From assembly GCF_055900595.2 (NCBI RefSeq), contig NZ_CM148325.1: a stretch of 64,000 nucleotides of DNA. One strand, written 5' to 3'. Within the stretch, counting starts at the first letter, position 1; each line of letters starts with the position of its first letter. The notes beneath the pieces are model-generated. The model had not been told where the DNA came from and did no database searches. It saw only the letters and a program-made list of their open reading frames with translations. The translations under genes and the position numbers were made by a program. Shown here piece by piece: positions 36,397 through 36,529 of this stretch.

Positions 36397-36426
36397 GATG
36401 CTCTCCCAAATATGAAATCTCTTGCT

Positions 36427-36448
36427 GGCATTACAAGAATCATGCCAA
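36427..36448 (-). promoter_or_regulatory. Candidate sigma-54 promoter for pspG (TGGCAT-gattc-TTGTA on the minus strand)
   Basis: -24 GG element with imperfect -12 element about 35 bp upstream of the pspG ATG; pspG is known to be sigma-54/PspF dependent. Weak -12 match. Confidence 0.3.
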
Positions 36449-36529
36449 AAATAATCTATTGATTTAACAGCAAAACGCCCCGCGACGGTGCGCAGGGCGT
36501 GGTGAATTTGACTACTTTTTGGTGAAAAG

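Follow-up and report, generated by a model that had tools for sequence, protein, structure and literature searches.

The PspF regulon of E. coli consists of pspABCDE and pspG, and deletion of the pspG promoter alters PspF dynamics (PMC3709507; PMC4591121). The K-12 promoter, pspGp, is credited to Lloyd et al. (2004, J Biol Chem 279:55707, as cited in PMC3709507, PMC4591121 and PMC3844500). PspF binds to UASs of both the pspA and the pspG promoters and IHF assists in this system (Mehta et al. 2013, PMC3709507). The pspG promoter has one UAS and is induced approximately 20-fold, and the pspA promoter has two UASs and is induced approximately 100-fold (PMC3709507). Our search of the literature for the coordinates of the pspG UAS and IHF site returned qualitative statements only.

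Binding of sigma-54 at pspG has been observed in several ways. Bonocora et al. (2015, PMC4591121) list TTGGCATGATTCTTGTA as the ChIP-seq site OS40 of pspG, with a FAT of 15. In the same work the promoter is marked as having experimental confirmation in EcoCyc, a transcription start is predicted 25 nt before the ATG, and pspG is among the few genes up-regulated by sigma-54 overexpression, a regulation that is ascribed to PspF. Studies done by Shimada et al. (2021, PMC8743547) using gSELEX showed that the sigma-54 holoenzyme binds the dusA>pspG spacer in vitro. The Salmonella ortholog of the site, TGGCATGATTTTTGTAAG, is strongly bound by sigma-54, with a 39-fold enrichment in ChIP-chip (Samuels et al. 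2013, PMC3844500).

The sigma-54 promoter in the dusA-pspG spacer

The window, which is the whole 64-kb stretch of DNA that was analysed, is part of an E. coli chromosome in an orientation reversed with respect to MG1655, and dnaB, qor, pspG and dusA surround the element under study. The interval 36397-36529 is exactly the dusA-pspG intergenic region, 133 nt in length. It is 100% identical to K-12 MG1655 over its full length, and the coding sequence flanking it has a few substitutions relative to K-12. Since the spacer is identical to that of K-12, the published K-12 experiments apply directly to the window. The pspG ATG sits within a longer listed open reading frame, and the gene is annotated as pspG in 5,424 E. 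coli genomes. The co-oriented gene dusA is also the upstream neighbor in the aligned loci of other Enterobacteriaceae. The genes and their signals are as follows:

36530..37567, minus strand: dusA (tRNA dihydrouridine synthase A), from the annotation; the open reading frame is 36530..37573 and the K-12 gene has 1038 nt
36532..36530, minus strand: dusA stop codon, TAA
36407..36401, minus strand: pspG Shine-Dalgarno sequence, GGGAGAG, conserved in the ortholog alignment
36154..36396, minus strand: pspG coding sequence, 80 aa, with its ATG at 36396..36394; K-12 b4050

Downstream of this region the sRNA PspH (K-12 b4758) is present at 35987..36097 on the minus strand and is identical to that of K-12. 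PspH derives from the pspG 3' UTR and is a reported sponge of the sRNA Spf (PMC5145812). Its 3' end is a hairpin, at about 36000..36014, that it has in common with the convergent qor gene. An Rfam scan of 35900-36700 gave no match in the intergenic region; sub-threshold ctRNA matches were found only on the qor/pspH terminator.

An earlier reading, made from the sequence only, had placed a -24/-12 motif on the minus strand approximately 35 bp upstream of the pspG ATG. This motif is present. TGGCATgattcTTGTA occupies 36447..36432, and with the preceding T it becomes the 17-mer TTGGCATGATTCTTGTA, the end of which is separated from the ATG by 35 nt. The GG at 36446/36445 (-25/-24) and the GT at 36434/36433 (-13/-12) have the canonical GG-N10-G(C/T) spacing, and the conserved promoter block runs on to TTGTAAT (36430). 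Compared with the sigma-54 consensus YTGGCACG-N4-TTGCW, the GG and the spacing are exact and the -12 element is GT instead of GC. When the site is set beside the published pspG promoter, the -24/-12 placement agrees with the 17-mer of Bonocora et al. (2015, PMC4591121). The element is thus the already known sigma-54/PspF-dependent pspG promoter, in another E. coli strain:

36448..36432, minus strand: sigma-54 (-24/-12) promoter of pspG, TTGGCATGATTCTTGTA, a 17-mer supported by the sequence and by published ChIP-seq
36421, minus strand: predicted pspG transcription start (+1), placed by sigma-54 geometry 12 nt past the T at -12 and 25 nt ahead of the pspG ATG, the same as the prediction in Table 1 of PMC4591121 and equivalent to K-12 position 4262815

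Conservation of the promoter was examined in 80 loci with PspG relatives, one genome per species, which were chosen via the protein and not via the promoter. The species range from Escherichia, Citrobacter, Salmonella, Enterobacter, Klebsiella and Kluyvera to Yersinia, Rahnella, Biostraticola and Brenneria. A sigma-54 site lies upstream of pspG in all 80 species and scores at least 15.2 bits in 79 of them. The GG at -24 is kept in 79 of the 80. The dinucleotide at -13/-12 is GT in 75 species, GA in three, GG in one and the canonical GC in one. An alignment of 75 Enterobacteriaceae sequences gives a column identity of 0.93 for the -24 element and 0.96 for the -12 element. Among the 42 intergenic-sense sites in Table 1 of Bonocora et al., GT at -12 is found for pspA, pspG and ygeW only, and Huvet et al. 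(PMC3041696) have reported the unusual GT motif of pspA promoters across species. The description of the -12 element as imperfect was therefore literally true, as GT stands in place of GC, but misleading, as 75 of 80 species retain GT and pspA has it too. GT at -12 is a fixed, conserved feature of psp promoters.

Several individual loci depart from the common form. The -24 element of Citrobacter werkmanii NBRC 105721 (L027 1449-1465) reads TTGTCATG, with GT replacing the GG that is invariant elsewhere. The site scores only 10.6 bits, and either a sequencing error or a pspG promoter crippled in this strain may account for it. Two loci from Salmonella enterica subsp. arizonae and diarizonae (L016 about 1435-1470; L033) have a REP-like insertion of approximately 34 nt with GTAGACCCGGTAAGCGCAGTACCGCCGGGCAA, which stretches the leader between the motif and the ATG from approximately 35 to approximately 69 nt. 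L033 is also the sole locus with the canonical GC at -12 (TTGCT), and the hairpin discussed below is weakened in it (-7.4 kcal/mol). The sigma-54 site of Yersinia vastinensis (L078 1294-1500) lies 190 nt upstream of the pspG ATG. Its leader may carry an inserted palindromic element, as suggested by 12-nt inverted arms that are separated by 129 nt.

Sequence scores were also determined for the whole window. The pattern TGGCACN5TTGCW with up to two mismatches has 31 matches in the window and 42 are expected. A PSSM was trained on 40 experimentally mapped intergenic sigma-54 sites (PMC4591121) with pspG and fdhF left out. With this matrix the pspG site ranks first among 127,968 window positions with 17.2 bits, compared with a leave-one-out median of 14.6 for the known sigma-54 sites, and training without pspA as well does not change this rank. 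In 22-33% of random 64-kb windows, however, some site equals or exceeds that score. The matrix scan that the sequence-only reading had proposed therefore singles out the pspG site within the window, but with a score that chance often reaches, and for this reason the PSSM score is not used as stand-alone evidence. The bare sigma-54 motif is not above chance at the 64-kb scale. The site stands above chance because of its intergenic placement, its orientation, its conservation in 80 of 80 species and the published binding at the identical K-12 sequence. The general lesson for sequence pipelines is that sigma-54 motif scores alone cannot tell true sites from chance at 64 kb.

The window had also been said to hold two sigma-54 promoter candidates, those of pspG and fdhF, and fdhF is indeed the only other confirmed site. 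The fdhF site, GTGGCATAAAAGATGCA (994..1010, plus strand), is identical to the published site OS41 of Bonocora et al. and ranks third by PSSM with 14.6 bits. The tables of Bonocora et al. list no other high-stringency sigma-54 sites between pspG and fdhF. Three further sigma-54-like sites score 14-15 bits, which is the level of fdhF: 21868..21884 (plus strand), 5855..5871 (minus strand) and 28551..28567 (plus strand). All three are missing from the high-stringency ChIP-seq tables of Bonocora et al. and probably represent fortuitous matches or weak sites inside genes.

The AT-rich block and the IHF-like site

Upstream of the promoter, two TTCACCA boxes lie 20 bp apart in an AT-rich block (36528..36499; about 4262708-4262737 in K-12), and an IHF-like site lies closer to the -24 element:

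36528..36517, minus strand: distal box, TTTTCACCAAAA, at -107..-96, column identity 0.85
36512..36499, minus strand: proximal box, GTCAAATTCACCAC, a probable PspF UAS at -91..-78, by its column identity of 0.94 and its resemblance to pspA
AT-rich block: candidate enhancer sequence GTCAAATTCACCA
36464..36452, minus strand: IHF-like site, AATCAATAGATTA, at -43..-31, a perfect match to WATCAANNNNTTR

The column identity of 0.94 for the proximal box matches that of the promoter and compares with 0.4-0.57 for the spacers between blocks in the 75-sequence alignment. The form of the box is dyad-like, T(A/G)GT-N7-ACCA, and it overlaps the hairpin solely at the AC of CCAC, which are the first two stem bases. 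The distal box starts one base past the dusA stop codon, and since it abuts that codon its conservation may come in part from coding constraint. It may be a PspF half-site or a second UAS element; one UAS is given for pspG in the literature (PMC3709507), whereas two TTCACCA boxes are seen in the window.

The same arrangement is found at pspA. The pattern TTCRCYA-N13-TTCRCYA occurs once in the window with 0.02 occurrences expected, a statistic that is circular since the pattern was chosen post hoc. It also occurs in the pspA region (L002 121-147) with the same 20-bp period, as TTCGCCA and TTCGCTA. Because the pattern had been derived after seeing both promoters, an independent 30-bp profile was built from the pspG orthologs alone. 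This profile finds the pspA enhancer region in the pspF-pspA spacer (L002 119-148) with 14.9 bits, and the best non-self score in the 64-kb window is 3.3 bits (127,942 positions). The comparison of pspA with pspG rests on gapless boxes and on this profile scan, as a three-way MAFFT alignment of the upstream regions misaligned pspA. The AT-rich block 36528..36499 is likely to be the PspF enhancer and the counterpart of the pspA enhancer, with its exact coordinates estimated from these resemblances.

The pspA UAS reportedly spans from about -80 to -126 in the papers of Jovanovic, Dworkin and Model. The pspG-derived profile matches the pspA enhancer on both strands (L002 112-148), with 14.9 bits forward and 13.8 bits reverse at an offset of 7 bp. 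This reflects the dyad symmetry of PspF sites (TTAGTG-TAATT-CGCTAA).

The IHF consensus has eight matches in the window with 2.5 expected, and the match considered here is the one between the hairpin and the promoter. The columns of its core, CAA-N4-TTA, are invariant or above 90% in the 75 species. The strict WATCAANNNNTTR is found in only 31 of the 80 loci and the remainder keep just the CAA-N4-TTA core. In the pspA promoter the corresponding position, equally far from TGGCA, is taken by AATCAAAAAGATA. AATCAATAGATTA is a candidate IHF site, and its similarity and conservation suggest where IHF would make contact. In Brenneria (L081 about 1355-1385; L083) the IHF-like AATCAATAAGTTA lies inside a 10-bp inverted repeat, TCGCTGATAA…TTATCAGCGA, and IHF-like sites embedded in an inverted repeat are absent from the Enterobacteriaceae loci examined.

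The distances between these elements vary in steps. The IHF-like core is fixed at 13-14 bp from the promoter, with 10 bp more in the distant genera Biostraticola, Brenneria, Yersinia and Rahnella. Loci L004-L077 were compared with L078-L083. Among the Enterobacteriaceae, 74 of 75 have the proximal box 66-67 bp from the GG. In the distant genera the separation grows to 74-76 bp (Biostraticola, Brenneria) or 88 bp (Yersinia, Rahnella). The steps correspond to roughly one and two extra helical turns, and it seems that the helical face is preserved while the length changes. Such a pattern is expected if a face-specific enhancer contacts a closed complex through a DNA loop.

The GC-rich hairpin and competing readings of the spacer

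The sequence-only reading had also described a GC-rich segment further upstream of the promoter, which it took for a possible enhancer-binding region. The segment exists: the string that was quoted is the plus-strand reading of 36499..36476, and the minus strand reads cgccctgcgcaccgtcgcggggcg. It forms most of a hairpin that is followed by a run of T residues:

36500..36466, minus strand: hairpin and T-run at -79..-45, a putative intrinsic terminator of dusA, by folding and covariation

The stem pairs 36500..36491 with 36484..36475 (10 pairs, 8 of them GC) around a 6-nt loop, CACCGT, and folds with -19.1 kcal/mol (z -2.65). The T-run TTTGCTGTT follows directly after the stem at 36474..36466; it is short and interrupted (UUUUGCUGUU). 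The hairpin begins 29 nt past the dusA stop codon, and a consensus scan finds it terminator-like.

Covariation was analysed in the alignment of 75 distinct Enterobacteriaceae sequences (A1). Standard pairs make up 97.1% of the hairpin pair cells, and 8 of the 10 pairs have changes on both sides. Cells with changes on both sides number 75, compared with 12.6 in shuffled alignments, and none of 500 shuffles reaches the observed values. Shifted pairing registers are only 36-60% paired, a comparison that somewhat favours the observed register as the structure was taken from the window sequence. Column identity reaches 0.94 in the T-run and falls to 0.44 in the loop; the hairpin arms, where changes are compensated, have 0.83. 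Both the hairpin (dG of at most -10 kcal/mol) and the T-run are kept in 71 of the 75 species. In Yersinia, Rahnella and Huaxiibacter hairpins of unrelated sequence, with about -19 kcal/mol, are found in the equivalent position. Such covariation is the mark of selection for an RNA hairpin rather than for a protein-binding sequence. Judged from its structure, conservation and location, the GC-rich hairpin with its T-run is most likely the intrinsic terminator of dusA.

A role of the GC-rich segment (36499..36476) as the PspF-binding UAS, or a part of it, would fit its location at -78..-55, which is inside the range of bEBP sites, and its dyad symmetry, a property of many protein sites. It also abuts the conserved proximal box, and a PspF footprint could reach into its 5' arm. 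We regard this role as very unlikely. The sequence of the segment is free to vary as long as pairing is kept, as the double-changed pairs demonstrate, and it is replaced by the unrelated hairpins in Yersinia, Rahnella and Huaxiibacter. A T-run specific to one orientation is conserved behind it, the pspA enhancer has no GC-rich counterpart, and the block that does match the pspA enhancer is the AT-rich one. The proposed enhancer-binding function of the segment was thus not borne out: what is kept is the pairing rather than the sequence. For sequence pipelines, a GC-rich dyad located just past a stop codon should be read first as a terminator. It could also be argued that the hairpin is real but is not a terminator, being instead a stabilising 3' stem-loop left after processing of the dusA mRNA, or an element acting at the level of the DNA, for example a cruciform or a stiff GC-rich spacer, by which the loop between PspF, IHF and sigma-54 is tuned. 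The short and interrupted U-run would fit such a role, as would the fixed position of the hairpin in the loop and the constant spacing between the UAS and the promoter. A search for dusA 3'-end mapping returned none, the supplements of PMC7815308 having no entries for dusA or pspG. On the other hand, a hairpin followed by a conserved sense-strand T-run 29 nt past a stop codon is a textbook intrinsic terminator, and both parts are kept together in 71 of 75 species. Klebsiella indica and S. diarizonae have weakened hairpins and yet keep the promoter, the UAS and the spacing, so the loop does not need the hairpin sequence. We therefore find a role other than termination improbable.

There is next to no likelihood that the -24/-12 match itself arose by chance and that pspG depends on dusA read-through or a sigma-70 promoter for its transcription. 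Matches at the level of the consensus are no commoner in the window than chance predicts, and the share of random windows with comparable PSSM scores is substantial, as given above. However, the site has a fixed position in every one of the 80 species, sigma-54 binds it in vivo and in vitro, PspF-dependent induction has been reported, and the terminator-like hairpin stands between dusA and the promoter. A sigma-70-like promoter was sought in the dusA-pspG intergenic region and was not found. A chance motif or a sigma-70 promoter was rejected in view of the published ChIP and PspF dependence on the identical K-12 sequence, the conservation in all 80 species and the result of the sigma-70 search.

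Reading of the spacer and comparison with known systems

We hold it to be very probable that the 133 bp contain the enhancer-dependent promoter of pspG with a terminator of dusA nested within it. The order of elements in the spacer, corrected with respect to the sequence-only reading, is most likely enhancer boxes, dusA terminator hairpin, IHF site and -24/-12 element, with the enhancer, the terminator and the IHF site being predicted assignments. In this reading sigma-54 RNA polymerase would be parked as a closed complex on the GG (-24) and GT (-12) at 36448..36432 and PspF would occupy the AT-rich TTCACCA boxes at about -78 to -107 (36499..36528). A bend introduced by IHF at AATCAATAGATTA (-43..-31) would bring the PspF hexamer to the polymerase. 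Membrane stress would lift the inhibition by PspA, ATP hydrolysis by PspF would open the promoter, and transcription would start near 36421. The hairpin and U-run, nested in the loop at -79..-45, would act in the dusA RNA as an intrinsic terminator. This may keep read-through from dusA off the IHF site and the sigma-54 complex, and pspG would stay strictly PspF-dependent. The contacts of PspF and IHF, the activity of the terminator in vivo and its insulating role are what we infer from the elements described above.

In about 70 enterobacterial species the hairpin is nested at one fixed position, and its first stem bases also belong to the predicted PspF box. That the nesting of the terminator in the enhancer-promoter loop is itself functional we consider doubtful. 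If it were, stopping dusA transcription just ahead of the IHF site would protect the long-lived sigma-54 closed complex, and dusA traffic through the PspF boxes could modulate their occupancy by PspF. The inducibility of pspG, and the sharing of limiting PspF between pspA and pspG, would then be coupled to the expression of dusA.

Two points are mildly new. One is the hairpin that separates the enhancer from the IHF site, which is most likely a structure-conserved terminator, as predicted from its covariation. The other is that the GT at -12 and the phasing of the elements are conserved for pspG across Enterobacterales, as was reported earlier for pspA. Beyond correct annotation the element has little significance. 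The PspF regulon, with its two promoters, counts the pspG promoter among its textbook members.

With known intrinsic terminators the hairpin has in common the GC-rich 10-bp stem, the 6-nt loop, the U-run, the distance of 29 nt from the stop codon of the co-oriented upstream gene and the compensatory changes. It differs from them in its short and interrupted U-run and in its setting: the predicted enhancer of the next gene lies on one side of it and the IHF site on the other, and its first stem bases are common to an enhancer box. With the E. coli pspA promoter the pspG promoter shares the use of sigma-54 with GT at -12 (pspA TTGGCACGCAAATTGTA, pspG TTGGCATGATTCTTGTA), an AATCAA-type IHF site 11-12 bp upstream of TGGCA and two TTCRCYA boxes 20 bp apart. 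However, the boxes of pspA are 13 bp further from the promoter (-118..-92, compared with -105..-79 in pspG), and the pspA enhancer coincides in part with the divergent pspF promoter. In pspG it is the predicted dusA terminator hairpin that lies in the enhancer-promoter loop.
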